NCBI GenBank assembly: GCA_036796335.1
Contig: DAIRDE010000008.1
Coordinates: 1,777-65,776 of the forward strand
Direction: 5' to 3'
Length of the DNA stretch: 64,000 nt
DNA from: Nonlabens sp.
GTDB lineage: Bacteria > Bacteroidota > Bacteroidia > Flavobacteriales > Flavobacteriaceae
Shown: in pieces, positions 372 to 57,025 of the stretch
Layout of the letters: each line of letters begins with the position of its first letter
How positions within the stretch are numbered: position 1 is the stretch's first letter
Program-made: the position numbers and the translations under genes
Notes under the pieces: generated by a model
What the model was told of the DNA's origin: nothing
What the model saw: the letters and a program-made list of their open reading frames with translations, nothing else
Databases searched by the model: none

Positions 372-1370
372 ATGATTTTAGTAACAGGAGGAACTGGTCT
401 TGTGGGTGGACATTTGCTGTATCGCTTTCGCGAAAGCGAACTCCCTATAACAGCCATTTACCGTAACAAAGCGCATCTAGCTAAAACGCGTGCGATATTT
501 GAATCCTATGCTGCAGGTGACGGGGCGCTGGTAGACCGTTTTAACTGGGTACAAGCAGATGTAACCGACCTGCCGTCGCTACAAGAAGTTGTGCAGGGAG
601 TAACCCATATTTACCATTGTGCAGCGCTTATAGAAGGTTCTTTTAAAGAACTGAAACTGGTAAACGTCCTAGGTACCGAAAATGTGGTGAATGTAGCGCT
701 GCATGCAGGCGTTAAAAAGTTGTGTTATGTAAGCAGCATTGCCGCACTAGGCGATCCTGTAAACGGCAAACCCACTACTGAAGATGATTTTTTTAACCTA
801 GATGCACGCAACAGCACCTATGCCATCACAAAATATGGTGCCGAAATGGAGGTATGGCGCGCAAGTCAAGAGGGCATGGACGTGGTTATTGTAAATCCAG
901 GTATTATTCTAGGCGAGGGGAACTGGAACAGCGGCTCTGGTAAATTGTTTTCTAAAACAGCCAGCGGGCAGCCTTTTTTTACGAGCGGCTCCAGCGGCTT
1001 TATAGACGTGCGCGATGTTGCTGAAATCATGCACAAACTTATGAATAGTGCGATTGCAAACGAGCGTTTTATTCTAGTCGCTGCAAATGAAACCTATAAA
1101 AAGGTCCTTACTAACATTGCTCAAGCACTTCACAAAAAACCGCCATATCTACACCTGCGCAGTGGTGTGTTATATGCAGTTTATGCATTACAACTCTTAG
1201 GCGCAATCGTCGGGATATCTAAAAGTCTTTCTCGTGCGATCATTAACTCGCTGGTGTCTCAAAGTTATTATAGTAGTAAGGCGGTTGCAGCTAGATTACC
1301 GCATACGTTTATCCCCTTAAACCAAACAATTAACCGTGTTGCGGCTAACTTTTTATCAAGCCGCAGTTAA
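372..1370 (+). CDS. NAD-dependent epimerase/dehydratase family (SDR) protein
   Basis: N-terminal Rossmann motif MILVTGGTGLVGGHL and an extended-SDR YxxxK (YAITKYGAE). The ORF opens at 339, but the internal Met at 372 sits directly before the glycine-rich motif. Confidence 0.85.
   Translation: MILVTGGTGLVGGHLLYRFRESELPITAIYRNKAHLAKTRAIFESYAAGDGALVDRFNWVQADVTDLPSLQEVVQGVTHIYHCAALIEGSFKELKLVNVLGTENVVNVALHAGVKKLCYVSSIAALGDPVNGKPTTEDDFFNLDARNSTYAITKYGAEMEVWRASQEGMDVVIVNPGIILGEGNWNSGSGKLFSKTASGQPFFTSGSSGFIDVRDVAEIMHKLMNSAIANERFILVAANETYKKVLTNIAQALHKKPPYLHLRSGVLYAVYALQLLGAIVGISKSLSRAIINSLVSQSYYSSKAVAARLPHTFIPLNQTINRVAANFLSSRS
423..438. repeat. palindrome CGCTTTCGCGAAAGCG, copy 1 (perfect, in the epimerase CDS, read as RFRESE)
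   Basis: Read directly from the sequence. The palindrome extends to 18 bp (TCGC..GCGA). Confidence 0.97.
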
Positions 1371-1381
1371 ACACCCATTTT

Positions 1382-1798
1382 TTACTTAACAATAGGCTTT
1401 AACTCTATAAGAGAGTCGGCTGTTACTGGTGTAACTTCATTTTGTTTGTTTTCTATTTCTATAAGCTCTTCTAGATTCTTTCTTTGGTTTGCCAAACGCT
1501 CGTTAGTACGTTTTAAGATTTCCTCATAATCCTCGGGACGATCTGCATAATAAGCAAAGTTTTTTTGAAAGGTAACGCTGTCTATTTTATGCTTTTTATA
1601 TACAAACTTATGGGGCAAGGTTTTGGTATTGAGAAATGCAGTTTGATTAGTAGCTAATGCCCCTTCTATCAAATAAATATCGGCCATGACGGCTGCCATT
1701 TTATCCTTATCTAGGAATCTATCTGGTTTTGGGGAGTAGCGCACCTGATTGCAAGAGGTGACTAGAATACCTAAAATAACGAGTGTTTTAAATTTCAT
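1382..1798 (-). CDS. small lipoprotein, DUF4296-like
   Basis: Lipoprotein signal MKFKTLVILGILVTSC. Its start overlaps the end of the upstream dihydroorotase gene by 4 nt. This position next to pyrC is, from memory, typical for DUF4296 in flavobacteria. Confidence 0.55.
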   Translation of the reverse strand: MKFKTLVILGILVTSCNQVRYSPKPDRFLDKDKMAAVMADIYLIEGALATNQTAFLNTKTLPHKFVYKKHKIDSVTFQKNFAYYADRPEDYEEILKRTNERLANQRKNLEELIEIENKQNEVTPVTADSLIELKPIVK

Positions 1799-7571: not shown

Positions 7572-8936
7572 ATGCGTCACATGCTAATTATAGGAGCTGG
7601 TAAATCTACCGGAGTTCTTGTAGATTACCTTATTAAAAAGGCACAAGAAGAAGATCTTTTTATCACCGTGGCCGATAAACAACTGCACCAGGCCGCCATA
7701 TTATGTGCAAAAAATGAACGCGCCAAGGCTATAGCACTAGACATCACAAATACTACCGAAAGACAAAACGCTATAAAAAGCGCCGATCTAATTGTCTCTA
7801 TGTTACCCGCTCATCTACACATAGAGGTCGCTATGGACTGTATTACTTTTAAAAAGTCCCTAGTAACCGCCAGTTATGTAAGCCACGCAATGCAAGAATT
7901 GCATGAGCAAGCCGTTGCAAATGGGCTGGTTTTTATGAACGAGATAGGCGTAGATCCAGGAATAGACCACATGAGCGCCATGGACATTATTGACCGACTG
8001 CGCGCTCAAGGAGCTAAAATTTTACTTTTTGAATCCTTTACCGGCGGGCTCGTGGCTCCCGACGATGACAATAACTTGTGGAATTACAAATTTACATGGA
8101 ACCCGCGCAATGTCGTATTAGCAGGACAAGGCGGCGCAGCCAAATTTATACAAGAAGGAACCTATAAACACATTCCTTACCACAGACTTTTTAGACGTAC
8201 CGAGTTTTTAGAAATAGAAGGTTACGGCCGTTTTGAAGTCTATGCAAATCGCAACAGCCTGCAATATAGAGATGCCTATAATCTTAATGACGTGCTCACA
8301 TTATACCGCGGGACGATGCGCCGTGTAGGTTTTTCTAAGGCGTGGAACATGTTTGTAACCCTAGGCATGACCGATGATACGTACACCTTAGAAGACTCTG
8401 AACACATGAGTTATCGAGACTTTATAAATAGCTTTTTGCCCTATTCTCCTACCGACAGTGTAGAACTAAAGACAAGGCACGAGCTTAAAATAGACCAAGA
8501 CGATATCATGTGGGATAAACTGGTAGAGTTAGACCTGTTTAACGCAACTAAAAAAGTAGGCCTTAAAAATGCCACACCCGCACAAATACTTCAAAAAATT
8601 CTCGAGGAAAGCTGGACCCTAAAACCAGGTGAAAAAGACATGATCGTCATGTACCACAAGATAGGTTTTGAACTTAACGGCGAGAAAAAACAAATAGACA
8701 GCACGATGGTGTGCCTGGGTGATGGACACAAACAAACAGCCATGGCAAAAACAGTTGGGTTACCTGTAGCCATCGCCGCACTTAAAATTTTAAACGGCGA
8801 GATACAGCGTCCAGGGGTTCAAATCCCAACGCAAGAGGCGATCTATAAGCCTATTTTAGAAGAACTTAGCCTGTATGGTGTTCGCTTTCGCGAAAGCGAA
8901 GTCCCCTACCTGGGCTACAACCACTTAAACCTTTAA
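7572..8936 (+). CDS. saccharopine dehydrogenase family protein
   Basis: Rossmann N-terminus MLIIGAGKSTG and IGVDPGIDHMSAM, the Lys9-like signature. The start may instead be 7581. Confidence 0.85.
   Translation: MRHMLIIGAGKSTGVLVDYLIKKAQEEDLFITVADKQLHQAAILCAKNERAKAIALDITNTTERQNAIKSADLIVSMLPAHLHIEVAMDCITFKKSLVTASYVSHAMQELHEQAVANGLVFMNEIGVDPGIDHMSAMDIIDRLRAQGAKILLFESFTGGLVAPDDDNNLWNYKFTWNPRNVVLAGQGGAAKFIQEGTYKHIPYHRLFRRTEFLEIEGYGRFEVYANRNSLQYRDAYNLNDVLTLYRGTMRRVGFSKAWNMFVTLGMTDDTYTLEDSEHMSYRDFINSFLPYSPTDSVELKTRHELKIDQDDIMWDKLVELDLFNATKKVGLKNATPAQILQKILEESWTLKPGEKDMIVMYHKIGFELNGEKKQIDSTMVCLGDGHKQTAMAKTVGLPVAIAALKILNGEIQRPGVQIPTQEAIYKPILEELSLYGVRFRESEVPYLGYNHLNL
8883..8898. repeat. palindrome copy 2 (perfect, in the saccharopine dehydrogenase CDS, read as RFRESE)
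   Basis: Read directly from the sequence. The palindrome extends to 20 bp (TTCGC..GCGAA). Confidence 0.97.
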
Positions 8937-9758: not shown

Positions 9759-11873
9759 TTATCGGTCATAGGACCAGTTTAAAATATCGGTGCGCAATCC
9801 CAAATTTACCCATAGGGTACTTTCTTTTATTACAACAGCGTTGTCAAACAGCGGGTTCATATCTCTATAAATAGCCTGCGCATATATGGTAAGTCTGCTC
9901 GATGGATTTATGATGTAGCCCGCCTCTAAATGTCCATAAAAAAAAGATGCGGTATTGCCCTGTGCTAGGGTATTTCCATTATCGCTTATGCGGTCGAACT
10001 CGCTGCGGTAAATATCACCGCCATAATAGGCGTTGTCGGTACCATCTAGTTTATCAAATCCACGTTTTCCATAAATTACCTTCCCGATACCGTACCAACG
10101 TCCATGTGAATATCTGGCAATTCCCAATAGCTCATAAAAATTTGCACCCCATGGATGGGCAAGCGCCTGGTTGCTGTTGCCATAATTAAGGACTACGGTG
10201 TTGTGAGAATAGGTATATGGCCTTACCCGGTTATACTCTGCTTGCAATTGTAAACCACTTACCTGGAAAGGATTTTGCCACTTTACACCTAACTGATAGC
10301 CACTTTTATTTTGGTATCCACCATTGCCACTAATCACTGCCTCACTAGAAAACTCGTCGAGCACAAACTGTGCATAACCTGTGACACGGTCGGTAAATTT
10401 ATATTTTGCAGTAGCTCCTATAAGTGCATTACCGCCACGAGAACCTGTTTGCAACTCGATGACTTGATAAAAAATAATCGGATTTATATAATTAAAATCA
10501 AAACCACGATAATTATCATTTTGCCACAAGACGCTTTCAAAGAAGCCGATGTTCAGGTTTTTGGTGGCATTCCAACTTAGGTAATGGTGTACCATAAATT
10601 TTGTTCTAAAAGAATCGTCGGCAGTCACCTCAGACCGCACATCTCTAAGTGATGTGTACAACACGGTATAATCCAGTTTCCAAAATCTCGCATTTACCTT
10701 TGCATATGGAAATGGTTGTGAGTTATCACTTAAAACCAGCGATCGATACCCGTCACCTATAAAATGCTGCCCGTGACCTAATTGCAAATTAAAGTACGTA
10801 CTAGGCTGGTAATTGATGTAACCTGTTGCAACGGGGTAATCAAAAGTGCCATCGCCATCCTCGGCAATACCGCGACCTGGTACAATACCCGGATTGCCAC
10901 CATCGGGTGCAGCGCGAGTTATTTCGCGATTAAAGTAGCCAGCAAAAATCCCTTGCGACTCGTGAATGCTCGCGCCAAAAGTAAGTTGCTTACCCACCCC
11001 ACCATTTACTTGCACCAGTCGCGTGTTGTTGCGTGTATTTAAACCGTCACCAGTATCTCTCCCTAGTTGCAAGTCCACACCTGGATCTACCACAAACCAA
11101 TAGTCGTCCCCCGCTACTTGAAAAAAGTGCTCGTTCCACCACTTGCGCCCTAGCCACGATTGTGCATTCTTTTGCTGCGATTCTTGTTCGGCTTGTAAGT
11201 CATAATATTCACTAACATAACTAAATGTATATGGTTTTACGGCCGTGTGAGCGTTATTTCCTATCTTATGCATTCCTATTTCATAGGTGCTGTATCGTTG
11301 TGCAGATAATGGAATAAGCGCGTTAGAGAAGATTTCTTGGTTTACATATTTATTAGAAACTATGGTGGTGTAATCGTTGTTCGCTTTCGCGAAAGCGAGA
11401 TTTTTAACAGCACTCGTATTATTTTTAACCTGTTGCATGTCCATGGCGGCATTGCTGTACACTTGAAAGGAGCCATCGTCAATCATGGGTAGTGCTACCG
11501 TTAGCACAAATTGTATAAATGTGGGCGTACCATTATAAAGTGGCGGTTGTATCGTGGGCAGCTCTTTAAAACTGGCTAACAATGCCGATTTAACAAGCGT
11601 ATTTGCTGCATCGATGCGTATTAGTTCAAAAGCACCTGTTTTAGAAACCTCAAACCGCAAGGTTGCCTTGTCCCGAGACACCTTGGTTTGTTGCGTATCT
11701 GGATGATTATAGGAAGCTTTTAACTCCTTATAAAGGTTTTCATAAAAACATTGTTCTATAGCAGCTTGCTCCAATTCTTTACAAGCGTCAAAAACAGGAA
11801 AATACTCTATCCCTTGCTGCGCCTTTAAAAACGGTGGAAACAACAGTAAGCACAGGATAAAAGCTATTCTCAT
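9759..11873 (-). CDS. outer-membrane beta-barrel protein (Wzi/RemB-like) with an N-terminal TonB_C-like domain
   Basis: Signal peptide MRIAFILCLLLFPPFLKAQ. Residues about 25-140 align by eye with the C-terminal domain of the two downstream TonB-like proteins (PVF..C...C...LRFEV..G...LP...P...G.P). The remainder is Y/G/N-rich alternating beta-strand sequence ending in an aromatic residue. Confidence 0.55.
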   Translation of the reverse strand: MRIAFILCLLLFPPFLKAQQGIEYFPVFDACKELEQAAIEQCFYENLYKELKASYNHPDTQQTKVSRDKATLRFEVSKTGAFELIRIDAANTLVKSALLASFKELPTIQPPLYNGTPTFIQFVLTVALPMIDDGSFQVYSNAAMDMQQVKNNTSAVKNLAFAKANNDYTTIVSNKYVNQEIFSNALIPLSAQRYSTYEIGMHKIGNNAHTAVKPYTFSYVSEYYDLQAEQESQQKNAQSWLGRKWWNEHFFQVAGDDYWFVVDPGVDLQLGRDTGDGLNTRNNTRLVQVNGGVGKQLTFGASIHESQGIFAGYFNREITRAAPDGGNPGIVPGRGIAEDGDGTFDYPVATGYINYQPSTYFNLQLGHGQHFIGDGYRSLVLSDNSQPFPYAKVNARFWKLDYTVLYTSLRDVRSEVTADDSFRTKFMVHHYLSWNATKNLNIGFFESVLWQNDNYRGFDFNYINPIIFYQVIELQTGSRGGNALIGATAKYKFTDRVTGYAQFVLDEFSSEAVISGNGGYQNKSGYQLGVKWQNPFQVSGLQLQAEYNRVRPYTYSHNTVVLNYGNSNQALAHPWGANFYELLGIARYSHGRWYGIGKVIYGKRGFDKLDGTDNAYYGGDIYRSEFDRISDNGNTLAQGNTASFFYGHLEAGYIINPSSRLTIYAQAIYRDMNPLFDNAVVIKESTLWVNLGLRTDILNWSYDR
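11382..11397. repeat. palindrome copy 3 (perfect, in the Wzi-like barrel CDS, read as AFAKA)
   Basis: Read directly from the sequence. The peptide context is KNLAFAKANNDY. Confidence 0.97.
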
Positions 11874-12001
11874 ACAGAATCGATTGATGGACAAATATAA
11901 TTTAATTATGACTACTGGTTTTGATTGATACAACAGTTATTCACACGAACATATAGTTAACTATTCACTTTCTACAAACATTATATCATTTATTTAAAAA
12001 C

Positions 12002-14834: not shown

Positions 14835-17800
14835 TTAATTACCAAAAGTATAACGCAAGGTAAACCCACTGCGTATGGTGGTTTGCGGGAATGCTGTAGA
14901 AATGGCAAATTGTGAGAACGTGTGGTCATAATAAAATAACGCGGTAAACGCAGCGCTTAAAGCATACTCGCCTGTAAACTTAAGTCCATATATTGTTTGC
15001 CCTGCAGTAGCCTGGCTGTTATCTAAATCCAGATATCTTATAATGGTAACATTATCACGCACTGACCCATCTAAACGCAAGTTTAAGTCACTTTTAATAA
15101 TGGTACTTCTACCGCCTACATTTGTTTTAAATCGCAAATCCTTTATACGATATCCTAAACCCAGAATAAGCTCATTCCCATTAATTTCAGTTAATAAGTT
15201 ATTGTCAAAACTTAAAGAAACTACACGATCTCTTCTAATTTCGGCTGCTACCGAAAGTGAGTTTTTCATCTCAAAATCTAGTTTAATGAGCGGGCTAAAT
15301 TGCTCGGCGAGGTTAATGTTGAAGAATAAATTACTCGCTTTAAAATCACCGTTTTGGTTAAGAGCTACTGTGTTTTGCCTGTCGTACTCTAATCCAGGTG
15401 TACCAGATACAAAATCCAGGTTTGTTTGAAACTGGTTGATGGTGTAACTAGATCGATAACCGTGATTTAAAGAGAATCGATTAAAGCGCTTTTTAAACCA
15501 TTGAAGATTCATTAAACCTGTGTATTTAATGGTCCAGTTAGGTAACGGAATGTCCTTAAACGCACCAGATTTTTGGTCAGCAATGTCACGCCCCTCATAA
15601 GCTGCAAGAAAAGCAGGTAAAAGTACATTTTGGCTGTTACGACTGAAACCTTGCGGGAAACCATCGGCATCGCGGCTGTAGGTGTCAGACCCGTAAAATT
15701 CTCGTGCAAGACGCTCGGCAACTGCTAGCCTGTTTTCTCTAAAGGTGTCAAAAACGGGGGAATTATCAATCGTACTAGGTTTAAAGGCTGTTGCTATGGT
15801 TAATGTAGATATATTAAAATTTCCCGATGTATTAGGTGTAAGCTGTTGGTATGTTAAATCTATAGGATCTACACGGAAATTTTCAGAGAAATTCTCCTGA
15901 TAATTGCGATTAGCTATCACATCAATTTTTAAGTCCTTAAGTACATCGACATTAAAATTAACATCCAGCAATCGGGTCTCAACCTCGGTATATTGTTGGT
16001 TAAATTCCTGGAACAAGGTTAACCAACCGCGTCGTGCTGCTAGATCACGAATCTCGGCCTGTGAACCAAATGTAAAGCCTAGTGTTGGGGTGAGTGTCCC
16101 TATAAAACCGACATCGGGGGTGTAGCCTGGTAACGTGGTACCGTTTGTTTCTTGATAATTAATTTGAACACGTTTAACCGCAGTAACAATTCCCACAAGT
16201 GTGTTGTATGCTTGGTTTGCAAAATTCTTTTTAGGAATCTTAGCCTCCTCTCCTTTTTTATCGCCAGCGGCAGGTGGGGCGGCGGGTGCACCTCGTCTAG
16301 GAGTACTTGCTGCACGCGTTCTTGTACCTGCCGCTGGTACACCAAATTTCTTTTTCTTCAATCCTATGTAAGAGTATAACTTATCAAGATCTAAGGACCC
16401 GTTTAGGCGGTGTGTGTTTGCATTTTGAACAGTATTTCCTAAATCTGGTATGCCCTCTAGCTGCGAGAATTGTTGTGAACTGCGCTGCCAGTTAAAATCT
16501 GCAGAGTATGTGTAGTTCGCTTTCGCGAAAGCGAGAAACGGAAACTTATCAAAGGGTAACTGATACGTCGTTTGTAATTGCTGCGTGTGTGCATTAGGAA
16601 CCCCCTCGTCGATAAAGTTTGTCCATATCCCATAGCTCTCGTCTATACTGTCATCGTCGTTTATAAAGGAGCGTATAACGCGATCGTTGTTTGCAGAGAA
16701 ATTGACTTGTAGTGATTTTGTAATATCCCAATTAATGGCGTAGCGGTTGTTAAATGTAAAATTGCGATTTGTTAATGGGTCTATAGAAATGTTTTGGGCA
16801 TCAGGAATACCATCACCATTTAAGTCTACAGGATTTGTGTCTAACTGTAAGTCTCTAAATTGCTGGCGGTTAAATTGCCTAATCACGGTACTTGTTGCAG
16901 TAAAATTATTAGGTAAAAGATTTATATTAAAGTCTTTAGCAAAGTCAAAATATTTTGATTTACCTAAAAAACCTATGTTTTTAAATGGTTCTAAGGTAGA
17001 CTTAGGAAATGCATAGTTATAGGTCGCCGCCACATTTACCGACTGGTCTATGAATTCGGCAACCTCAAAATTGCGCTGATCGGTCTGGTTATAGGAACCA
17101 GAAAATGTAAAGTTTTCAATATTATAAGGCATGGGTTTAGCATCGCCGGTGCGGTCTTTACGCACGCCTATCAGGTTTACACTTTGCCTGCGGGTGTAAT
17201 CTTCACTTTGTTGTCTTATCGCCTCGCGTTCGGCATCACTTGTGGCGTTTGCTAGACGGGTATCTAGTTCTATGTCTTCAAATTGTGGGTCGAATTGTGG
17301 GGTCACTGTCGTTTCCCCGATGCTATAGGTAAATGGCAAGTTCACGCCCCATTTTTTTGGTAATAATTGCCCTAAACTCACACTGGTGGTGACATCGTAC
17401 TGGGTGACATCTTCTCGACTGCGCTCGTTAGGACCTTGTTCAATGGCCCCAAAACCTATAGTGCTTCTTCTTCCAGATGCACTTACGGTGGCAAAATCTG
17501 CAATGTTTGCATCCAGATTCATGACGGCAGCATATCCCCCCTGATTTTTAAGTCCCGAAAGTCGCAACTCGTTTACCCACACCTCGCCACAAATATCGTT
17601 TGTACTGGCGTTGCGCACGCCTATCATTAAGGTTCGTACATCGCCAAAATTAGGATTTCCCTTAATCCCAAAACGATGCAAGTTGGGTCTACCGGCTGCA
17701 GCGGGATTTAAATCTACTTCATTAAAAAAGTTGAGTTCGTTTACATTGAGTGCAGGATTGCCTAAAACCAAAGATTTGATTTGTTGTAAAAGCGCAAGAT

Positions 17801-25216: not shown

Positions 25217-25232
25217 CGCTTTCGCGAAAGCG
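25217..25232. repeat. palindrome copy 6 (perfect, intergenic, upstream of maeB)
   Basis: Read directly from the sequence. It is a 20-bp palindrome and shares 25 identical nt with copy 8. Confidence 0.97.
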
Positions 25233-27256: not shown

Positions 27257-27272
27257 CGCTTTCGCAAAAGCG
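27257..27272. repeat. palindrome copy 7 (15/16, CGCTTTCGCAAAAGCG, intergenic, just downstream of the P450 stop)
   Basis: Read directly from the sequence. There is a single central mismatch. Confidence 0.9.
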
Positions 27273-29716: not shown

Positions 29717-29732
29717 CGCTTTCGCGAAAGCG
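29717..29732. repeat. palindrome copy 8 (perfect, intergenic, 44 nt upstream of the ruvB ATG)
   Basis: Read directly from the sequence. It is a 20-bp palindrome. Confidence 0.97.
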
Positions 29733-36904: not shown

Positions 36905-39900
36905 TTATACGTTTCTTACCTTTACTTGGTACATCACATTAGGTTCGGTTCCTACTTCCTCTAATAAATGATACATACGGTCTTGCTGTTTTAAGGCAAA
37001 AATCTCTGATTGTTTATTGTTAACGTCACCAAACTTGATAGCGCCGTTAGAACATGCATTTGAACACGCGGTCGCAAACTCGCCCTCGCCTACTGCACGG
37101 CCATCCTTTTTAGCTTCTAGAATGACCATTTGAGTCATTTGAATACACATAGAACATTTTTCCATAACACCACGAGAACGCACTGTCACATCTGGGTTAA
37201 TAACCATACGACCTAAGTCATTGTTCATGTGATAATCAAACTCGTCATTGCCGTTATACAAGAACCAGTTGAAACGTCTTACCTTATAAGGGCAGTTGTT
37301 AGCACAGTAACGTGTACCCACACAACGGTTGTACGCCATATGGTTTTGACCTTGGCGACCATGAGAAGACGCTGCAACAGGACAAACTGTCTCACATGGT
37401 GCGTGGTTACAATGCTGACACATTAAAGGCATAAAAGCAACCTGTGGATTTTCAGCAGGTATTTCAAGTTCACCAAATCCACCTAGCGAGCCATTGTCAC
37501 CAAATAAACCAGAGAAACCATCTTTTTTCTCTTCGTCTTTTTCAAAACTAACAGTAGAAGAATAATATCTGTCAATACGCAACCAGTGCATATCGCGAGA
37601 TTTCATAACCTCAGCCTTACCTACAACAGGTACATTATTTTCTGCATGACAGGCAATAACACATGCACCACAGCCCGTACAAGCATTTAAATCAATAGAC
37701 ATATTGAAGTGATGCCCTACCGTTCTATCAAAACTGTCCCACAAATCAACATCGGGAGAAGTTACGGGGGTTTCAATATGATTTAAGGAAACTTCGGGAA
37801 CTGGATTAAATTCATCTTTATTCCCTAAGATATAAGTAGAAAGAGTCGTTTCTCTAATAATATCACGACCCATCATTGTATTTTGTAACTGCGTGCAAGC
37901 AAAAGGATGTAAACCATTTGTTTTTTCAACCTTCACCGCCTGTGTACTCACGCCGTCTACGTAAAAAGGAAAAGCATTTACCCCTGTTTGCATCTCGGAC
38001 TGTATAGAGGCCGTTTGCCCGTATCCTAAAGCAATACCTAGAGTACCTACTGCTTGACCCGGTTGAATAATCACTGGGAAATTAGCTGTAGTACCACCTA
38101 AGGTTACTTTGACTAGACCGCCAGTTAATGAGCCATCTGCTGTATTTTCATTTGTAATTTCCAGCTTAGCGGCATCTGCTTGAGACATGGTCACATAATT
38201 ATCCCATGTAGTACGTGTAATAGGATCTGGCAATTCTTGAAGCCACGGATTATTAGCTTGCGCACCATTACCTAATCCTATTTTTGTATAAAGCACAAGC
38301 TCCATACCGCTAGGTTTTTTAGCATTTGCCAATGCACTAAATGCAGACGCGTCGTTAATAGCAGGTTGCTGGGCAACAGCACTTTCAGCTACCGCAGTGG
38401 CAGCGGCCATTGATTCATAAAAACCATTTTGCAAAGCCTGCGACCAGCTAACATTTAAACCCATCGCGCTTTCTTTTAAAAAGTCTTTATAAGAAGTTTC
38501 CACACCCGCCCATTTCAACAAAGTATCTTGCGCTTGGCGTGTTCTAAATATCGGTTTTATAGTAGGCTGCATCAATGACACAAAGCCTTTCTTAATCTCT
38601 ACATCTCCCCATGACTCAAGGTAGTGAGGTGTTGTTGCCACATATTGAGAAGCAGTGGCTGTAGCATCCAATCGGGTTGAAAATGATACCGTGAGGTCTA
38701 CTTTTTTCATCGCTTTCGCGAAAGCGTCACCACTACTGTGACTATACACTGGATCTACACCTATGGTAAATAAAGCACCAACTTTACCAGCATTCATCTC
38801 GCCTAACAAAGTGTCAACCGATTTACGATTGCCTTGTCTTGTAAGAATAGGCGCGTTAACATCAATAATTGTCGAGCCAATAAGTTCGTTTAGCGATAAC
38901 GTAAGTTGTTGCGCTGACTCGTCAGGGATACCGCATAATACAATTCCCTTATTACCGGCTTTGCGCAGGCTTTCGTATGTTTTTGCAACGGCTTTGTTAA
39001 GTTTATCAGGCAAAGCGCTTACTGTACCCCCATTAAATTTAGCATATAATGCAGCGAGGACAAGTTTTTGTTCGGTTGGTGTCAATGGATAACGCACATC
39101 GGCACTAGCCCCTGAGAGCGTCATGTTAGACTCAAACTGAATGTGATGAGACATTTGACCGTTTGCAGGAACGCGTGATTTAGCGTACCCTTTATCAAAA
39201 TTTCCACCTTGCCAGTCTCCTACAAAATCTGCCCCGATAGAAACAATGCAAGCAGCCTCAGTAAAATCATAGTCTGCAAGACCTCTAACACCATATTTAC
39301 GTTCAAAAGCATTAAGTGCGGCATCCTCACCTACTGAATCATAGATGACGTGTTTTACATTTGAATATTTTGCTTTTAAAAGACCAATGATGGCATGTAC
39401 CGACGGACTTGCAAATGTTTGCGTTAGTAAAACGAGTTGCTTACCATTTAACGCGCCCAGCTTTGCAGCAACCTGCTTATCTAATTCTTCCCAAGTGGCT
39501 TTTTCACCTTTTATAAGAGGCGTTTTAAGACGATTTGTGTCATATAACGAAAGTACCGAGGCATGCACACGTGCATTTGCGTGTCCACGGTGCGGTACAT
39601 CGCGGTTGCTTTCTACTTTTATTGGGCGACCTTCTCGAGTCTTGATCAACACACTTGCAAAATCATACCCATCTGCTATTGTCGTGGCATAATAATTAGG
39701 CAGGCCAGGGATTAATTGCTCTGGTTGATTTACATAAGGTACCGAATAAATAACTGGTCCCTCGCAAGCGGCTAAAGAAGCAGCAGCGGTGCTAAAACCA
39801 ACATATTTAAGGAAGTCTCTACGCGTAGTGTTTGAGGACTCCATCGCTTTATCATTTCCTAAAAAAGACTCAGTAGGTATGGGAGTTACAAACTCGTTTT

Positions 39901-41476: not shown

Positions 41477-41492
41477 CGCTTTCGCGAAAGCG
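41477..41492. repeat. palindrome copy 10 (perfect, intergenic, in the actA / SPOR-gene divergent spacer)
   Basis: Read directly from the sequence. It lies 27 nt upstream of the SPOR gene ATG. Confidence 0.97.
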
Positions 41493-46583: not shown

Positions 46584-46585
46584 AT

Positions 46586-48047: not shown

Positions 48048-51000
48048 ATGAACATTGCATACGACCGATTAAACAAAATAATAGGATGGTTAAGTTTTAG
48101 CATCTCTTTGTGTGTGTATTGGCTTACTGTTGAGCCTACCGTAAGTTTTTGGGACGCAGGCGAGTACATCGCCACCTCGTCTGGATTACAAGTAGGTCAC
48201 CCACCTGGGGCACCACTTTATCAAATGTTAGGTGCATTTTTCTCCATGTTTGCGTTTAGTCCTGATAAAATAGCCTACATGGTAAACATGATGTCTGTTT
48301 TTTCTAGTGCATTCACCATACTGTTTATGTATTGGTCTATCACACTGCTACTTAAAAGGCATATTTTAAAAGACAAAGGAGATGATACCGTAATCCTAGG
48401 AGCAGGATTTATAGGGGCAATGGCATTTACATTCTCTGACACTTTTTGGTTCAACGCGGTAGAAGCCGAGGTTTATGCACTCGCAACATTGCTCATGGCA
48501 GTCATGTTTTACCTAGGTTTATTGTGGGAACGGGACATGCTGCAACCTCGCGGTAATCGCTGGTTAATATTATTATCACTAATTATTGGACTTTCTTTTG
48601 GCGTGCACTTTATCGGTATACTTACCATCCCGGCAGTGGGCATGCTTTGGTATTTTAAACATTATAAAAAAATCACGATTCTCAATTTCATTGTTGCTAA
48701 CGTGGCAGTGGTAGCGGTGTTACTATTTGTTTTCAAATTATTATTACCATACACACTCAGTATTTTTGGCTATTTAGAAATCTTCTTTGTGAACGACATT
48801 GGTTTACCCTTTAACTCGGGAACCATCATTGCACTATTGCTTGTTGTGGGCGCCTTTGTAGGTCTTATTTCGCTTTCGCGAAAGCGTAACAATCCACTAC
48901 TCAACAACATCGTGTTATGCGTCATGTTTGTTTTAATAGGCTTTTCCTCGTGGACCATGCTGCCTATACGAGCAAATGCTGGCACACCTATTAACGAAAA
49001 TAAACCCGAAGACGCGCGTTCATTACTAGCATATTACAACCGTGAACAGTACCCTAGCGCACCCCTATTTTATGGAGAATCGTTTACAGACCAATACTCG
49101 GGATTAAACCCAGACGACCCATTTACCGATGAGAAGCCTAAATATGAAAAAGATTATAAGCTGGGAAAATATGTTATCGTTAATAAGTTTGAAAACGCGT
49201 TACAAAACTCAAATCCAGAACATATTGGGGTTTTACCGCGCATGTCTGACACCTCTCGTGCTACCGAATATGTAAAGTTTATGGGCGGTCTTAATTATGA
49301 GATCATGCCACAGTTTAGGGACAATCAGGAGTTGTTAAGCCTACTTGATGATAACCAGCGGCAGCTAGAGCGCGGTCGTATAGACGAAAGTGAATATATA
49401 GAAACACTAACATCTTTACAAAGCATTCCTGACCAAGAAGGTGGACGCATAGAGGTGCTTAAAATTCAGAAACCTACATTTAGCCAAAACATGGCATTCT
49501 TTGCCCAGTATCAGGTAAGTTATATGTACTTGCGATACTTTATGTGGAATTTTGTAGGCCGTCAAAACGATGAGCAAGGTATGTGGGATCGTTTTAATGG
49601 GAACTGGTTGAGTGGTATCCCATCTATAGACTCGTGGCACATAGGCACACAAGATAATTTAAGCCCAGACATGTTAAACAACAAGGCGCGAAATGTTTAC
49701 TTTTTCTTGCCTCTTATTCTAGGTATTATCGGTGCTGTTTTTCACGCAAAACGCGATTTGAAGTCATTTTATGTAACGTTGGTGTTGTTCTTATTCTCTG
49801 GACTTGCTATAATCGTGTATTTAAACCAAAGCATGTTTCAGGTGCGGGAGCGAGATTATGCGTATGTAGGGTCTTTTCTGGTCTTTGCCATGTGGATAGG
49901 CATGGGTGTGTATTCGATGTATGAAGGAGCAAAATCCTATATAAATGGACCCATAGCAAAATATGCAGTTATATTGAGTTGCTTTATTGCTGTACCGCTA
50001 TTAATGGGATTTCAAAACTGGGACGACCATGACCGGTCTGGCAAGTATACTGCCCTAGCAAGTGCTAGAAAGTATCTGGACAGCTGTTTGCCTAATGCTT
50101 TAATATTTACCATAGGCGATAATGACACTTTCCCGCTGTGGTACCTGCAAGAAGTAGAAGGTTATCGCACCGATGTGCGTGTGGTTTGTACAAGCTTACT
50201 AGCTACTGACTGGTATATGGACGATATGAAAAAGAAAGCGTGGCTTAGCGACCCTGTACCATCGACATTACCACATGAAAAATACAGATACGGTACAAGA
50301 GATGCATTGTGGTATGCCGACAAGGATCGCCTGCGCCAGCGTATAGGTGACCCTAATCTTGTTTTCCCTGACACGATGAGTATTAAACAGTGGATGGACT
50401 GGGTTGCAAGTGATAACGAGGTGACACTAGAAGAGATGCGCAGCGGTCACATGGAAAACACCTTCCCTACAAAATATGTAACCATACCCGTTAATAAAGA
50501 AAATGTATTAAAAAATGGTGTGGTACTTGCAAGGGATGCCGATAAAATTGTAGACGAAATAACGATAAAAATAAATTCTAACCTCGTTTACAAAAACCGC
50601 ATGCTTATGCTGGACATTATTCTAGCAAACGACTGGAAACGCCCTATTTACTTTTCTGGTGGCGCTTTTGGCGATGATGACTACATCTGGATGAAAGACT
50701 ATTTGCAACTAGACGGTTGTGCTTACCGACTTTTACCGATACAATATAAAAGCTCTAACCCTAGAGATCCGTTTGAAATGGGGCGTGTAGATCCAGATTA
50801 TGCCTATAAAACAATTATGAAATGGGACTGGGGTAATAGTGGAGACCCTGATGTGTACCATGACGTGGAAACCAGACGCAATAGCGTGGGCTACCGTTCT
50901 AATATCGCACGTGCCGCCGAGGCACTAACCATGGCTGGGCAATTTAAAAAAGCCGAGCAATTACTAGACCTGGGAATGGAAAAAATGCCTTTAGATATTT

Positions 51001-51422
51001 TTGGCCATTATTCAATGATAGAACCCTTTTCTACAGGATATTATGAAGTTGACAAAACCACCAAAGCGCGTAAATTACTAGACGCTGTGATTAAAAAATA
51101 TCAGGAAGAACTAGATCATTACAAAGCACTTACCCCCGACGAGCAGTCAACCGTACGATTAGAGATCATCACCGCAGTAGAACGTTACCGCAGCCTTGTG
51201 CGAGTTCCTATTTATTATGAAGATGATAAGCAGGTAGTAAAACACCTGAACACATTTAACAACTATGTAAAAGCGTTTCCTATGTATTACAGCCCCGAGG
51301 AACTTCTTAATGAAGACGGCAGCACACCTATGGAAACCAAAGCAGCCCAAGAAGAACGACAAGCTCTTTTAAACGATAGTTTGGAAAAAACAATGTCACA
51401 AATTATCGACAGCGCAAAATAA
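48048..51422 (+). CDS. DUF2723 (TMEM260-like, GT-C fold) membrane glycosyltransferase-family protein
   Basis: 1124 aa. The N-terminal motif SFWDAGEYIATSSGLQVGHPPGAPLYQMLG, ~10 TM helices and a large C-terminal soluble TPR-like part are characteristic of DUF2723. Confidence 0.8.
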   Translation: MNIAYDRLNKIIGWLSFSISLCVYWLTVEPTVSFWDAGEYIATSSGLQVGHPPGAPLYQMLGAFFSMFAFSPDKIAYMVNMMSVFSSAFTILFMYWSITLLLKRHILKDKGDDTVILGAGFIGAMAFTFSDTFWFNAVEAEVYALATLLMAVMFYLGLLWERDMLQPRGNRWLILLSLIIGLSFGVHFIGILTIPAVGMLWYFKHYKKITILNFIVANVAVVAVLLFVFKLLLPYTLSIFGYLEIFFVNDIGLPFNSGTIIALLLVVGAFVGLISLSRKRNNPLLNNIVLCVMFVLIGFSSWTMLPIRANAGTPINENKPEDARSLLAYYNREQYPSAPLFYGESFTDQYSGLNPDDPFTDEKPKYEKDYKLGKYVIVNKFENALQNSNPEHIGVLPRMSDTSRATEYVKFMGGLNYEIMPQFRDNQELLSLLDDNQRQLERGRIDESEYIETLTSLQSIPDQEGGRIEVLKIQKPTFSQNMAFFAQYQVSYMYLRYFMWNFVGRQNDEQGMWDRFNGNWLSGIPSIDSWHIGTQDNLSPDMLNNKARNVYFFLPLILGIIGAVFHAKRDLKSFYVTLVLFLFSGLAIIVYLNQSMFQVRERDYAYVGSFLVFAMWIGMGVYSMYEGAKSYINGPIAKYAVILSCFIAVPLLMGFQNWDDHDRSGKYTALASARKYLDSCLPNALIFTIGDNDTFPLWYLQEVEGYRTDVRVVCTSLLATDWYMDDMKKKAWLSDPVPSTLPHEKYRYGTRDALWYADKDRLRQRIGDPNLVFPDTMSIKQWMDWVASDNEVTLEEMRSGHMENTFPTKYVTIPVNKENVLKNGVVLARDADKIVDEITIKINSNLVYKNRMLMLDIILANDWKRPIYFSGGAFGDDDYIWMKDYLQLDGCAYRLLPIQYKSSNPRDPFEMGRVDPDYAYKTIMKWDWGNSGDPDVYHDVETRRNSVGYRSNIARAAEALTMAGQFKKAEQLLDLGMEKMPLDIFGHYSMIEPFSTGYYEVDKTTKARKLLDAVIKKYQEELDHYKALTPDEQSTVRLEIITAVERYRSLVRVPIYYEDDKQVVKHLNTFNNYVKAFPMYYSPEELLNEDGSTPMETKAAQEERQALLNDSLEKTMSQIIDSAK
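48871..48886. repeat. palindrome copy 11 (perfect, in the DUF2723 CDS, read as LSRKR)
   Basis: Read directly from the sequence. The peptide context is ISLSRKRNN. Confidence 0.97.
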
Positions 51423-52382: not shown

Positions 52383-53603
52383 TTAACCTCTTTTAAGCGT
52401 GATTACAGTAATCTCGGGCCATATACCAGCCCGACCCTTATAACCTAAAAAGCCAAAACCCCGGTTTACGTTTAAAAAACGGTCAAATTCTTTATAAATG
52501 CCTGCCCATTTTTTATAAACAAACCACGCAGGACTTAATTTTATAAAACCAGGTATCTCAATGCCAAACTGCATCCCGTGCGTATGCCCACTTAACGTCA
52601 GGTGAAAGTTGCTGGGACTTTCCTTAACCTGCAAATCCCAGTGTGTAGGGTCATGGCTTAAAAGCACCTTAAACAAATTTGAATCCAGTCCCTGTGCGGC
52701 TTTACTTAAATTACCATATTTAGGAAAACGACCGCCACCCCAGTTTTGCACCCCTACGATAGCAAGCTGGTCCTCACCGCGTTTTAAAATTTCGTGCTCG
52801 TCCATTAACAGCCGCCAACCCATATTTTTTTGAATACTAGCCAGTTCTTCTAAATTACCCCTTTTAGCAGCATCACTAGGCCACTGTACATAATCACCAT
52901 AATCATGATTCCCTAATACCGAGTAAACACCATCTTGAGCACGCAAACTCCCAAATATTTCTTCCCAGCCATACATTTCACTTGCCTGATTATTTACTAA
53001 ATCCCCTGTAAATAATATGAGATCGCCTTGCTGTTTATTTGCCAGATCTATCGCATATCGCACCTCTTCTTTATCATTAAAACTGCCCACATGAATGTCA
53101 CTTAAATGCGTCATGCGGTAGCCATCAAATGCGGCTGGTAAATCCTTAAAACGCAACTCATATTTTCTAACTTGGTAATTATATTTTCCCCGCCATGCCC
53201 CATAAAATATAGCTCCAAATGGCAGCGCGGCAACTCCCAGTCCTATCGTTGCAATAAACTGCCGCCTGCTGGGTAAAAAAGGTTGTTGGGCATCTCGCTT
53301 TCGCGAAAGCGAACTCCACAAACCCTCGCCCAGTCTATACACATCTTCTATAAGCATGAAGAGTATGAAAAACGATTTTGCCGTGAGAAATGCAATAAAG
53401 ATTGTCGTTGCAAAATCCCGAGAAGTGGACAAGGCATTTCTATCTGGATTTAAATAAAACTGTAAAATAAGGTTCAGGATAACACCTATGGACAATGCGA
53501 GATACAACCATTTCCACCAGTGACCACGTGAAATGCTGCGTATAAGTTGAAACGCATAGATTTCGAGTAAAATAAAAATGGCTATCGCAATAAATAATCT
53601 CAT
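52383..53603 (-). CDS. membrane-anchored metallophosphoesterase
   Basis: Motifs LSDIHVG, GDLVN, GNHDY and GHTH, with four N-terminal TM helices. Confidence 0.85.
   Translation of the reverse strand: MRLFIAIAIFILLEIYAFQLIRSISRGHWWKWLYLALSIGVILNLILQFYLNPDRNALSTSRDFATTIFIAFLTAKSFFILFMLIEDVYRLGEGLWSSLSRKRDAQQPFLPSRRQFIATIGLGVAALPFGAIFYGAWRGKYNYQVRKYELRFKDLPAAFDGYRMTHLSDIHVGSFNDKEEVRYAIDLANKQQGDLILFTGDLVNNQASEMYGWEEIFGSLRAQDGVYSVLGNHDYGDYVQWPSDAAKRGNLEELASIQKNMGWRLLMDEHEILKRGEDQLAIVGVQNWGGGRFPKYGNLSKAAQGLDSNLFKVLLSHDPTHWDLQVKESPSNFHLTLSGHTHGMQFGIEIPGFIKLSPAWFVYKKWAGIYKEFDRFLNVNRGFGFLGYKGRAGIWPEITVITLKRG
53296..53311. repeat. palindrome copy 12 (perfect, in the metallophosphoesterase CDS, read as LSRKR)
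   Basis: Read directly from the sequence. The peptide context is WSSLSRKRDA. Confidence 0.97.
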
Positions 53604-55328: not shown

Positions 55329-55472
55329 GCGTTTAAAACGTGCAAACTATTGACATCACATAAAAAAGTTGCCGCAAGGTGGGGCTAGAAATCGTGCAAA
55401 TAACCGTAAAACAACCTTATTGTTACTTACGCGTTTTATAGGTTAACATCACAAACAAACATATTGCCGCAA
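55329..55472 (+). repeat. two imperfect ~45-nt direct repeats upstream of rpoN
   Basis: 55329..55377 and 55431..55472 share the ordered blocks GCGTTT(A/T)A, (G/A)ACATCACA, an A-rich spacer and TTGCCGCAA. Confidence 0.5.
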
Positions 55473-55561
55473 TTATGTATCATAAAATAGCTGCTATATG
55501 TCTTAACTTTATGGATAGCAAGTCAGGCTTTTTATTATTTTTACGTGATTAAGTAATCATT

Positions 55562-57025
55562 ATGCTCAAACAGTCTTTAAGTTTTAAGCTTTCGCAAAAG
55601 CTTTCCCCGCAACAAATACAGTTAATGAAACTGATACAGTTGCCTACACAAGAGTTTGAGCAACGGGTAAAAGCCGAACTCGAGGAGAATCCTGCACTAG
55701 ATAGCGGTAGTGAAAAGAATGAGGACGATTATGACGAGTTTTCTAATGAAAACGACAGCGATTATGACACTGATAGTGAATCGATAGAAACAGATATTAA
55801 TGTAGATGATTACCTGAGTGACGACGACATACCCGAGTACCGCACACAGGCAAATAATTACAGTGCAGATGACGAGGACCGCAACATGCCCTATGCAGCA
55901 GGTAAGTCATTTACCCAAACGCTTAACGAGCAATTAGATACCCTAAGACTTACAGATGAAGAGGCAGCGATTGCCGCCTTTCTTGTAGGCAGCATTGACG
56001 AGAGCGGTTACATAAGGCGCTCCTTAGAAGATATTACCGACGACCTGGCATTTACCTCCAATATATTTACCGAGGTTGCTGTGGTAGAAAAAGTACTGAA
56101 AATAGTGCAAACGATAGACCCTGCGGGCGTGGGTGCCCGTGACTTGCAGGAGTGTTTGTTAATTCAGCTTTCGCGAAAGCGTAAAACCGAATCTACCGAA
56201 CTTGCTATAAAATTGCTGCGTGACTCCTTTGATGCATTCAGTAAGAAGCATTACGATAAAATTGTAGCAAAGTATGATCTAAACGAGGATCAACTGCGCG
56301 CCGCGATAGACGAAATTGCCCATTTAAACCCCAAACCAGGTGGTTCAATTTCTGGTGGGAACTTGCGTGCCGTGGAACAAGTAATTCCCGACTTTATTAT
56401 ACGTATAAAAGATGGGGAATTAGAACTTACCCTAAATGGTCGTAATGCGCCTGAACTGCATGTTTCAAAAGATTATTCTAACATGCTTAAAGGCTATAAA
56501 GAGGCTAAAGAAAAAAGCAAATCGCAAAAAGATGCTGTCATGTTTATTAAACAAAAACTGGATGGTGCAAAATGGTTTATAGAGGCCATAAAACAGCGCC
56601 AGGAGACACTTTTTGTAACCATGTCGGCCATTATGAACTACCAGAAAGACTTTTTTTTAAGTGGTGACGAGCGCAACCTGCGCCCCATGATTTTAAAAGA
56701 TATTGCCGATGAGATAGGCATGGACGTGTCTACCGTTTCCCGCGTGGCAAATTCTAAATATGTAGACACACCATACGGCACAAAACTTATTAAAGTATTT
56801 TTTTCAGAATCAATGACAAATGCCGATGGCGAGGAAGTTTCTACCAGAGAAATTAAAAAAATACTAGAAACTGTTATAGGCGAGGAAAAAAAACGAAGGC
56901 CACTTACCGACCAGCGACTTGCCGAAATTCTTAAAGAAAAGGGCTATCCTATTGCACGTAGAACTGTTGCAAAATACAGGGAACAGCTGGACATACCCGT
57001 TGCCCGTTTAAGAAAACAAATCTAA
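55562..57025 (+). CDS. rpoN: RNA polymerase sigma-54 factor
   Basis: 487 aa with region I LKQSLSFKLSQKLSPQQIQLMKL, an acidic region II, the HTH STVSRV and the RpoN box ARRTVAKYR. Confidence 0.95.
   Translation: MLKQSLSFKLSQKLSPQQIQLMKLIQLPTQEFEQRVKAELEENPALDSGSEKNEDDYDEFSNENDSDYDTDSESIETDINVDDYLSDDDIPEYRTQANNYSADDEDRNMPYAAGKSFTQTLNEQLDTLRLTDEEAAIAAFLVGSIDESGYIRRSLEDITDDLAFTSNIFTEVAVVEKVLKIVQTIDPAGVGARDLQECLLIQLSRKRKTESTELAIKLLRDSFDAFSKKHYDKIVAKYDLNEDQLRAAIDEIAHLNPKPGGSISGGNLRAVEQVIPDFIIRIKDGELELTLNGRNAPELHVSKDYSNMLKGYKEAKEKSKSQKDAVMFIKQKLDGAKWFIEAIKQRQETLFVTMSAIMNYQKDFFLSGDERNLRPMILKDIADEIGMDVSTVSRVANSKYVDTPYGTKLIKVFFSESMTNADGEEVSTREIKKILETVIGEEKKRRPLTDQRLAEILKEKGYPIARRTVAKYREQLDIPVARLRKQI
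55587..55602. repeat. diverged relative AGCTTTCGCAAAAGCT (13/16, in rpoN codons for KLSQKL)
   Basis: Read directly from the sequence. It is itself a near-palindrome with the same central variant as copy 7. Confidence 0.6.
56166..56181. repeat. palindrome copy 13 (15/16, AGCTTTCGCGAAAGCG, in the rpoN CDS, read as QLSRKR)
   Basis: Read directly from the sequence. The only mismatch is the middle base of a CAG Gln codon. Confidence 0.95.

Follow-up and report, generated by a model that had tools for sequence, protein, structure and literature searches.

The 64-kb stretch of DNA analyzed here (the window) derives from a relative of Nonlabens whose RpoN is 84% identical to that of N. dokdonensis, and contains a perfect 16-bp palindrome, CGCTTTCGCGAAAGCG, which is the motif behind three pentapeptides, RFRES, AFAKA and LSRKR. 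It is this DNA word, and not a peptide, that is maintained, and its occurrence is limited to Nonlabens, Dokdonia and uncultured Flavobacteriaceae related to them. Alignments of orthologs further indicate that the coding copies arose by point substitution at already similar sites, and not by insertion. Taken together, these data make it very probable that the palindrome belongs to a general class of DNA-level recognition words that originate by substitution and are maintained by selection or drive, and we consider it reasonably likely that the best explanation overall is a lineage-specific highly iterated palindrome (HIP), similar to the cyanobacterial HIP1 and to uptake sequences, that serves a predicted dimeric reader.

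Within the window, which has ~40% G+C and a coding fraction of 0.90, the palindrome occurs in 12 exact copies, as compared with an expectation of 0.02 and a largest value of 1 in dinucleotide-preserving shuffles of the same DNA. Two additional copies each carry one mismatch (CGCTTTCGCAAAAGCG at 27257 and AGCTTTCGCGAAAGCG at 56166), and the 14-mer core, GCTTTCGCGAAAGC, is found 13 times. Ten of the 14 copies are coding, all of them in frame within long open reading frames (ORFs), with host genes on both strands, and four are intergenic:

423..438: exact copy in an NAD-dependent epimerase gene (339-1370, + strand), read as RFRES directly after the GxxGxxG loop.
8883..8898: exact copy in a saccharopine dehydrogenase gene (7572-8936, + strand), read as RFRES, 12 codons ahead of the stop.
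11382..11397: exact copy in a gene for a secreted protein of no assigned family (9759-11933, - strand), read as AFAKA within a linker rich in N and Q.
16518..16533: exact copy in sprA (14835-22058, - strand), read as AFAKA at an internal site.
21981..21996: exact copy in sprA (14835-22058, - strand), read as AFAKA at the end of the SprA signal peptide, ..FAFAKA before Q.
25217..25232: exact copy, intergenic, 86 nt upstream of a malic enzyme gene, at the left edge of a 2-kb variable segment.
27257..27272: one-mismatch copy (G10>A), intergenic, 27 nt downstream of a P450 gene, at the right edge of the 2-kb variable segment.
29717..29732: exact copy, intergenic, in the spacer of coxI and ruvB.
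38711..38726: exact copy in an ActB-type Fe-S subunit gene (36905-40030, - strand), read as AFAKA.
41477..41492: exact copy, intergenic, in the spacer of divergent genes.
48871..48886: exact copy in a TMEM260-like/DUF2723 gene (48048-51422, + strand), read as LSRKR.
53296..53311: exact copy in a four-transmembrane (4TM) metallophosphoesterase gene (52383-53603, - strand), read as LSRKR in a variable loop.
56166..56181: one-mismatch copy (C1>A) in rpoN (55562-57025, + strand), read as (Q)LSRKR.
63020..63035: exact copy in an S15 peptidase gene (61163-63076, - strand), read as AFAKA at the end of the signal peptide, ..FAFAKA before Q.

The original prediction had described the palindrome as translated in all three frames within 10 unrelated ORFs located between 423 and 56181. 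The three frames, the absence of any broken frame, the use of both strands and the pentapeptide assigned to each gene all proved correct for the ten coding copies, while the number of ORFs is nine, because SprA carries two copies, and the last coding copy, at 63020, lies beyond that end. Pfam supports the identity of the epimerase, saccharopine dehydrogenase, SprA, ActB-type Fe-S protein, TMEM260-like/DUF2723, metallophosphoesterase, RpoN and S15 peptidase hosts, whereas the label of Wzi-like barrel given to the product of 9759-11933 could not be verified, there being no Pfam or NCBIfam match for this ORF.

Support for maintenance of the DNA word can be found in a census of peptide spellings across ~290,000 codons of long ORFs, taken from the window and from the loci fetched for comparison. 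AFAKA, FRES and LSRK occur 85, 32 and 39 times in this sample, and the palindrome or a one-base variant of it spells 85 of 85, 32 of 32 and 36 of 39 of them, respectively, while the reversed or shuffled control peptides AKAFA, SERF and KRSL occur between zero and two times. Given the codon usage of the window, the probability of finding AFAKA spelled as GCT TTC GCG AAA GCG is 0.0008, and that of the corresponding spelling of LSRK is 0.0007. The comparison of codon usage called for at the outset thus favors the DNA word, which is spelled with the minority codons GCG (17% of Ala), TTC (15% of Phe), TCG (12% of Ser) and CGA (10% of Arg). Furthermore, outgroup orthologs aligned at the word sites do not encode AFAKA, LSRKR or RFRES, and the pattern that would have pointed to conservation of the peptide, namely orthologs encoding these peptides with other codons, was not encountered in the outgroup alignments. 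Because the peptides are spelled almost exclusively by the palindrome, in rare codons, and are lacking from the outgroups, the claim that the DNA word is what is maintained is borne out, and selection at the level of the peptide is ruled out.

A false extension of ORFs, which would place copies upstream of the true starts, is ruled out by the flanking Rossmann loop, signal peptides and conserved blocks. The ORF at 9759-11933 (- strand) begins with a TTG start 20 codons upstream of a plausible Met, which is followed by the signal peptide MRIAFILCLLLFPPFLKA and then QQ; most likely it encodes a real secreted protein that starts at Met21 and carries the word in a linker. In addition, the AFAKA frame recurrently forms the end of a signal peptide, ..[FS]AFAKA before Q, in line with cleavage after A-x-A and with Gln as the next residue (window 21981 and 63020; L023 1302, L044 7054, L065 6346, L069 156 and L071 3058), and ~11 of 68 AFAKA-frame copies lie no more than 25 residues from the first Met.

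The origin of the coding copies was addressed by aligning orthologs for eight of the ten, the two signal-peptide copies not being alignable outside the clade. At six sites, those of rpoN, ActB, the SprA internal site, the TMEM260-like protein, the metallophosphoesterase and saccharopine dehydrogenase, the alignments are gap-free at the word. In rpoN, ~70 sequences of the Nonlabens clade read IQLSRKR, with few IQL[LKAV]RK variants, and ~47 outgroup sequences of equal length, including named ones from Leeuwenhoekiella, Gillisia, Aquimarina and Gelidibacter, read IQL[KRHE]R[KR][EDT]. The codons, CAG TTA AAG CGA AAG GAT in Leeuwenhoekiella as compared with CAG CTT TCG CGA AAG CGT in Nonlabens, show that the right half-site was pre-existing and that the left half was rewritten. 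It had been noted that the sole mismatch of this copy, C1>A, spares a Gln codon, and this Gln is indeed invariant, with the identical mismatch carried by N. dokdonensis. The accompanying suggestion that QLS is conserved holds for Q and L, the invariant residues being I-Q-L, and fails for Ser, which is not conserved outside the clade. In Dokdonia (L077, a metagenome-assembled genome (MAG), ~660-690), rpoN reads CTT TCG CGA AAA GCG (QLSRKA) at codons orthologous to window position 56166, a likeness that reflects either shared ancestry or parallel conversion of one proto-site.

Similar replacements are evident at the remaining sites. ActB reads D-AFAKA-x in the clade and [DE]FAEG, VFVKA and similar in outgroups, where the DNA is gap-free at the site in 76 of 78 aligned sequences, lies 6-12 mismatches from the word and consists of ordinary AT-rich codons; a metagenome scan for within-clade ActB DNA returned almost only outgroups and served as a negative control. 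At the internal site of SprA, the nearly invariant outgroup block PFL-KFIRA-TYSYTGDFQWQ has become PFL-AFAKA-xYTY in ~36 of 40 Nonlabens sequences, with few variants (AFANA, AFAEA, DFART), such that the step from KFIRA to AFAKA replaces three residues and introduces no gap. That so constrained a block was overwritten argues for a strong force acting at the level of DNA. The TMEM260-like protein reads ISLSRKR in the window and IRFSRKR, with three mismatches and no gap, in N. ulvanivorans; the metallophosphoesterase reads SLSRKRD as compared with SLFGEST in Leeuwenhoekiella, again with no gap at the word; and saccharopine dehydrogenase reads GV-RFRES-EVPYLGYN where its closest homologs read G[IV]-VFKE[YT]-E[VM]PY[LV]GYN, likewise ungapped. 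At the signal-peptide end of SprA, FAFAKAQ is fixed, as a peptide, across ~38 Nonlabens SprA lineages, and PFLAFAKA is likewise fixed in them at the internal site. An additional site, in a cytochrome c gene (window ~34.4-34.8 kb), follows the pattern GY[ED][AL]AKA, reading GYEAAKA in the window and GYDLAKA in Mesonia; in N. ulvanivorans (L165 15335) and N. tegetincola (L166 15332) it reads GYASAKA, spelled CGCTTCCGCGAAAGC[A/G], i.e. CGCTTCCGCGAAAGCG, and so appears to have been caught part-way toward the word.

Since the outgroup sequences are of equal length and already similar at the word sites, they point to substitution, in agreement with the original prediction of convergence toward the palindrome limited by purifying selection, and the check for indels that it had proposed returned substitutions and no indel at the word. 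The insertion model is ruled out for the six alignable coding sites, and the word is seen to have been written only where one of the three pentapeptides is tolerable, including signal-peptide ends, loops, linkers and hydrophobic-to-polar boundaries. These data bear directly upon the proposal that the copies represent a small mobile palindromic element, of the REP/RAYT, MITE or Rickettsia palindromic element (RPE) kind, that inserts in frame. While a repeated palindrome with approximately one third of its copies between genes would suit such an element, and RPEs are known inside genes, the lack of an indel at the word in six of six alignable coding sites, a length of 16 bp that is not a multiple of 3, the lack of copy-specific extensions, inverted-repeat arms or target duplications, and the half-sites that outgroups already carry at equivalent codons refute it for the coding copies and leave it with a negligible probability overall. 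A REP/RAYT element in particular is rejected on the grounds that ~two thirds of the copies lie in genes and that the copies are perfect palindromes, solitary and avoiding each other, where REPs are imperfect palindromes with a conserved 5' tetranucleotide and are often clustered. Thus, although REP/BIME elements and RPEs are also repeated palindromic DNA, and RPEs also lie in frame inside genes, REPs are extragenic and mobilized by RAYT and RPEs are insertions of 100-150 bp, whereas copies of the word are substitutions and the repeat unit is the word only.

Analysis of a larger set of copies reveals several characteristics of the word and its surroundings. Frame use is uneven (AFAKA 61%, RFRES 22%, LSRKR 17%), and 55 of 166 copies fall outside ORFs of 120 codons or more, the genomes being ~90% coding, which leaves ~two thirds of copies inside genes. 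One-mismatch variants seldom affect the interior of the word: 35 of 47 differ at the outermost base, position 1/16, which defines a hard core of 14 bp, the 14-mer given above. Outside the word, a compositional bias extends for ~25 nt: T is frequent and C scarce (9%) on the 5' side, and A is frequent and G scarce on the 3' side. The consensus of non-coding copies is T-T-A, CGCTTTCGCGAAAGCG, T-A-A, position -2 being T in 90% of them and position +17 being A in 84%. This flank signature is present in all three coding frames, when oriented by gene, and is common to Dokdonia, Nonlabens and unclassified Flavobacteriaceae, while chance singletons lack it. Inside genes it corresponds to a hydrophobic stretch, then the word, then a polar stretch, a pattern which accounts for the favored status of signal-peptide ends and helix-loop boundaries; tolerance by proteins cannot, though, account for the flank signature of the non-coding copies.

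The spacing of copies is similarly constrained. Gaps between neighbors in the window are more even than expected (coefficient of variation 0.51, P=0.006), and none is shorter than 2 kb (P=0.0006). Across 60 independent tiles, 3 of 72 gaps are shorter than 1 kb as compared with 19.9 expected, a deficit matched in none of 20,000 simulations; new copies do not build up within ~1 kb of an existing copy. Several conventional identities were considered and rejected. Extended hairpin or MITE arms are not supported, flank complementarity within a copy being 7.4 of 20 as compared with 7.0 of 20 between different copies. An intrinsic terminator is contradicted by a weak hairpin (-4.3 kcal/mol), an A-rich 3' flank, a T-rich 5' flank and the location of most copies inside ORFs. 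Lastly, no Rfam family matches at the word, the sole Rfam match in the window being a tRNA (47734-47804, - strand).

Comparison of orthologous sites indicates that the copies are old and have been kept letter-perfect while the neighboring DNA diverged to ~70% identity. Within the three or four species that supply within-clade DNA for comparison of synonymous sites, the ActB site matches the word at 16/16, 15/16 and 16/16 positions in three Nonlabens species, with local DNA identity of 67-71% and five of five synonymous third positions retained. The intergenic copy at 41477 has a counterpart at the equivalent junction in N. ulvanivorans (L165 8472), that at 29717 has counterparts in N. ulvanivorans (L165 20777) and N. 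tegetincola (L166 20183), and the copies at 21981 and 25217 are both retained in the orthologous Nonlabens locus L065. Among randomly sampled tiles, the exact 16-mer is kept in six orthologous pairs whose surrounding 120 residues are 40-91% identical. Turnover also occurs: the copy at 48871 is specific to the window, and N. dokdonensis has copies that are absent from it.

The distribution of the word was determined by scanning GTDB, at one genome per species, as 8-kb tiles amounting to 596 Gb. At least 117 tiles contain the word, and among the 117 matches listed, 45 are from Dokdonia, 33 from Nonlabens (including BBFL7) and 25 from uncultured Flavobacteriaceae. Two more are labeled uncultured Aquimarina and share an orthologous signal-peptide site, one is from an unclassified bacterium, and 11 are single-copy tiles elsewhere (unrelated phyla, one Leeuwenhoekiella MAG and one Flavobacterium phragmitis), which is approximately the number expected by chance for 596 Gb. 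Comparison loci of 21-23 kb each, picked irrespective of word content, lead to the same picture: 4 exact copies and 1 near copy in 21 kb of N. dokdonensis, 2 exact and 3 near in 23 kb of N. ulvanivorans, and 3 exact and 4 near in 23 kb of N. tegetincola, that is, 9 exact copies in the 68 kb of these three other Nonlabens loci, as opposed to none, even within 2-3 mismatches, in Leeuwenhoekiella (21 kb) and three Mesonia species (69 kb), and zero exact copies in 304 kb from 80 outgroup flavobacterial loci. Density approximates one copy per 5 kb, corresponding to 600-750 per genome when extrapolated from the 64-kb window and the 21-23-kb loci.

The two principal genera are not obvious sisters. 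In AsnRS, RpoN, IF2 and NusA, Dokdonia is no closer to the window organism than are the word-free Leeuwenhoekiella or Mesonia, so that the distribution calls for loss of the word on several occasions or, alternatively, for transfer of the factor that reads or writes it, and random 8-kb tiles, a sparse sample, yielded no orthologous word sites common to Dokdonia and Nonlabens. A related word, TTCCGCGGAAGCG, with the architecture of the Nonlabens word and a symmetric T6>C / A11>G change, is present three times in 23 kb of Mesonia algae (L167 1024, 8757, 13454) and once in M. ostreae (L168 596), and is absent from the M. phycicola and Leeuwenhoekiella loci; it may be a weak lineage variant, comparable to the alternate HIPs of cyanobacteria. 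These counts are too weak to build on, and a systematic lineage-variant word in the outgroups was set aside.

Phages and other variable DNA provide a varied picture. In-frame copies read as TLSRKRY, FSLSRKRR and RRFRESA are present on a viral contig that also encodes tape-measure, baseplate and tail proteins, and several IMG/VR contigs, one of them integrase-bearing (L127), contain 3-6 copies at near-host density (L159 1287, 7847 and 9086; L127 2734). By contrast, the cultured Nonlabens (Persicivirga) phage P12024S contains zero copies in its whole genome of 35.7 kb, even at three mismatches. Thus, in a small sample, word-free DNA comprises this phage, the interior of the 2-kb variable segment and a 9-kb unshared block of the Nonlabens locus L163, while prophage-like contigs carry the word. 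The variable segment itself (25233-27256, ~2 kb) has no long ORF and a copy of the palindrome at each edge; its contents are fragments, including an ORF resembling a type IX secretion system (T9SS) C-terminal tail (25350-25697) and, at 26373-26731, a RelE/ParE-like ORF of 44 aa with an antitoxin-like ORF of 80 aa. In L065, the orthologous Nonlabens locus, the malic-enzyme gene directly neighbors the P450 gene, and one copy of the word lies in the spacer.

Observations of this kind raise the possibility that the palindrome is a recombination or integration site, that is, a crossover or insertion point for a recombinase, an integrase or palindrome-induced breakage, that is kept for flexibility of gene order or brought by mobile DNA. 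The presence of a 2-kb segment between two copies where L065 has one would be consistent with such a role, as would a copy on one viral contig that lies 7 nt past a tyrosine integrase gene. An enrichment of copies at gene-order junctions is also suggestive: when the window is compared with L065, L163, L165 and L166, copies are found at 4-5 of ~7 junctions (at ~25.2-27.3 kb, 29.7 kb, 41.5 kb and 53.6-53.9 kb), as compared with ~15% of ordinary spacers, although this sample is small and post hoc and junction spacers may simply be the least constrained DNA. Given that two thirds of copies reside in conserved genes without rearrangement, and that the coding copies arose by substitution, we regard this explanation as very doubtful.

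The form of the word is informative with regard to what may recognize it. The length and exactness of so symmetric a word, whose flank preferences are symmetric too and whose hairpin is weak, suggest, as the simplest reading, a binding site for a homodimeric, sequence-specific DNA-binding protein that would act genome-wide. One alternative dispenses with such a protein: in the HIP model of Elhai, methylation-linked or otherwise biased mismatch repair corrects near-copies to a word that is itself functionless. Bias of this type would be in keeping with substitution at pre-similar sites, with the CGCG and TCGCGA within the word, which are typical methyltransferase targets, and with the 35 of 47 variants at the first or last base, as reported for HIP1 (PMC4390886). 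Nevertheless, a recognition sequence of 14-16 bp with flanks far exceeds that of known methyltransferase or Vsr-type enzymes; TCGCGA (an NruI-type core) is neither avoided nor in excess outside the word, with 8 observed and ~9 expected from composition; neither the flank signature nor the repulsion between neighbors is predicted; and a phage that replicates in a Nonlabens host has zero near-copies. Repair bias is therefore judged improbable.

A dimeric reader might instead organize or partition the chromosome, and a selected architectural site of this kind is the main rival to drive. Under such a scheme, a nucleoid-associated protein, or a dimer resembling ParB, Noc or SlmA, would bind every ~5 kb, and each site would be kept by purifying selection. 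The even spacing and the repulsion below 1 kb, the conservation of sites at orthologous positions and the absence of the word from a lytic phage, which fits a chromosomal function, are all compatible with this role, as are a length and symmetry that resemble those of parS (16 bp) and Noc sites (14 bp). A like proposal has been made for HIP1 (PMC5861425). Conversely, the extrapolated 600-750 sites per genome are ~ten times more than known systems of that kind employ; the benefit of a single site should be tiny, yet a nearly invariant block of SprA has been rewritten and fixed; prophage-like contigs carry the word at near-host density; and no candidate protein is known. On balance an architectural or segregation site is considered unlikely.

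Our own preference, a tentative one that we hold as a possibility and not as an expectation, is for molecular drive of the uptake or recombination type. The predicted dimeric reader would bias which DNA is taken up or recombined, alleles gaining the word would spread by drive, even at the cost of conserved residues, and a second nearby copy would bring a diminishing return, hence the spacing. Drive is preferred because it explains how changes in conserved residues became fixed, why copies are enriched between genes and the peptides they encode inflated, why foreign or variable DNA appears poor in the word, why co-occurring genera share it and why a second nearby copy would bring a diminishing return, and because these features parallel those of uptake sequences (PMC2817400). 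A recent proposal likewise assigns HIP1 a role in uptake (bioRxiv 10.64898/2026.06.24.733823), and one member of the Flavobacteriales, Riemerella columbina, is competent and prefers its own DNA (PMC7965970).

Several considerations weigh against a reader that acts through drive. Firstly, known uptake sequences are 9-12 nt in length, non-palindromic, ~four times denser and composed of preferred codons, while this word uses rare codons. Secondly, we know of no reader protein, methyltransferase or competence phenotype identified for Nonlabens or Dokdonia. Thirdly, a palindrome of 16-22 bp is more typical of architectural or segregation sites, such as parS and Noc sites, for which selection at each site, although it would have to be strong to explain the conservation, is conceivable. 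Additionally, the repulsion between copies could stem from the instability of close repeats, the genome-wide copy numbers are extrapolations, and the apparent separation of Dokdonia from Nonlabens derives from four protein identities and not from a phylogeny. In its boldest form, which we think rather unlikely though worth stating, the drive hypothesis would make the palindrome a sequence-specific self tag for DNA uptake or recombination, the first of its kind in the Bacteroidota, unusually long (16-22 bp), symmetric, read by a dimer and spread by a drive whose strength would suffice to replace conserved residues even in essential proteins, SprA among them. The finding that Nonlabens and Dokdonia are no closer to one another than to word-free genera would then reflect horizontal transfer of the reader between the two, followed by parallel rewriting.

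A full-text search of the literature revealed no prior description of the word, of palindromes in Nonlabens or Dokdonia, or of HIPs in flavobacteria, and the 16-mer is apparently undescribed before now; the lineage restriction, intergenic copies, flank signature, spacing rule and HIP1 and uptake-sequence analogs all go beyond the original prediction. Of the known systems, HIP1 (GCGATCGC) and the alternate cyanobacterial HIPs share the most obvious similarities with the word. Both are GC-rich palindromes that are over-represented hundreds of times, and the Nonlabens word lies within the 15- to 300-fold or more over-representation by which HIPs are recognized; both are found between genes and, in all frames, within them, and neither codons nor peptides suffice to explain their conservation at orthologous sites; and both are lineage-restricted, with possible lineage variants and no known RNA or peptide role. 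HIP1 has itself been described as conserved within and between ORFs without such a role (PMC5861425), and its one-nucleotide deviations are biased to the ends, as they are here (PMC4390886). The differences are equally clear: the flavobacterial word is twice as long (a 14-16-bp core, ~20-22 bp with flanks, as compared with an octamer), occurs in the Flavobacteriaceae (Bacteroidota) and not in cyanobacteria, and is ~ten times less dense (~1 per 5 kb, where HIP1 can exceed 1 per gene). No methyltransferase is known to act on it, and no cognate orphan DNA methyltransferase was seen within the 64-kb window. Moreover, short-range repulsion and a 25-nt flank signature characterize this word, neither of which we found reported for HIP1.

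Uptake sequences, USS of the Pasteurellaceae and DUS of the Neisseriaceae, resemble the word in a different set of properties. They too have arisen by point mutation in hundreds of copies and in every frame, are enriched between genes, fall mostly on poorly conserved residues and inflate the frequency of the peptides they encode, doubling that of the encoded tripeptides; genes acquired recently lack them, and related genera have them in common (PMC2817400). They differ in being 9-12 nt, asymmetric, present at ~1 per kb and built from preferred codons, whereas the word is a 16-bp palindrome of rare codons. Sites such as parS, Noc-binding sites, matS and SlmA sites are also perfect palindromes of 14-16 bp that are recognized by dimers, often lie in genes and are scattered over the chromosome, but a genome has between a few and ~100 of them, and they mark particular regions, while the word is ~ten times denser by extrapolation and its sequence is unrelated to the conserved parS consensus. 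By analogy, therefore, the word would seem to work like HIP1 and uptake sequences and yet belong to neither.

What HIP1 does is a matter of debate even now, three decades after it was discovered, and to our knowledge uptake sequences are known from only two proteobacterial families and sequence-specific uptake is not known from any member of the Bacteroidota. Against this background, the palindrome offers an independent and much longer word of the HIP1 and uptake kind, and hence a far more specific one, in marine flavobacteria that can be cultivated, with strains of both Dokdonia and Nonlabens held in culture collections. It thereby provides a second system in which to weigh an uptake tag, chromosome architecture and repair bias against one another, and its 20-22-bp form, TTACGCTTTCGCGAAAGCGTAA, is an ideal bait for finding the reader. 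In metagenomes, the word can also serve as a sharp taxonomic marker by which to bin DNA of Nonlabens, of Dokdonia and of their prophages. Finally, the changes at SprA (KFIRA to AFAKA), rpoN and ActB indicate that a force acting at the level of DNA can rewrite conserved protein positions and shape the ends of signal peptides, which bears upon how amino-acid substitutions and codon usage are to be interpreted in genomes that are rich in the word.

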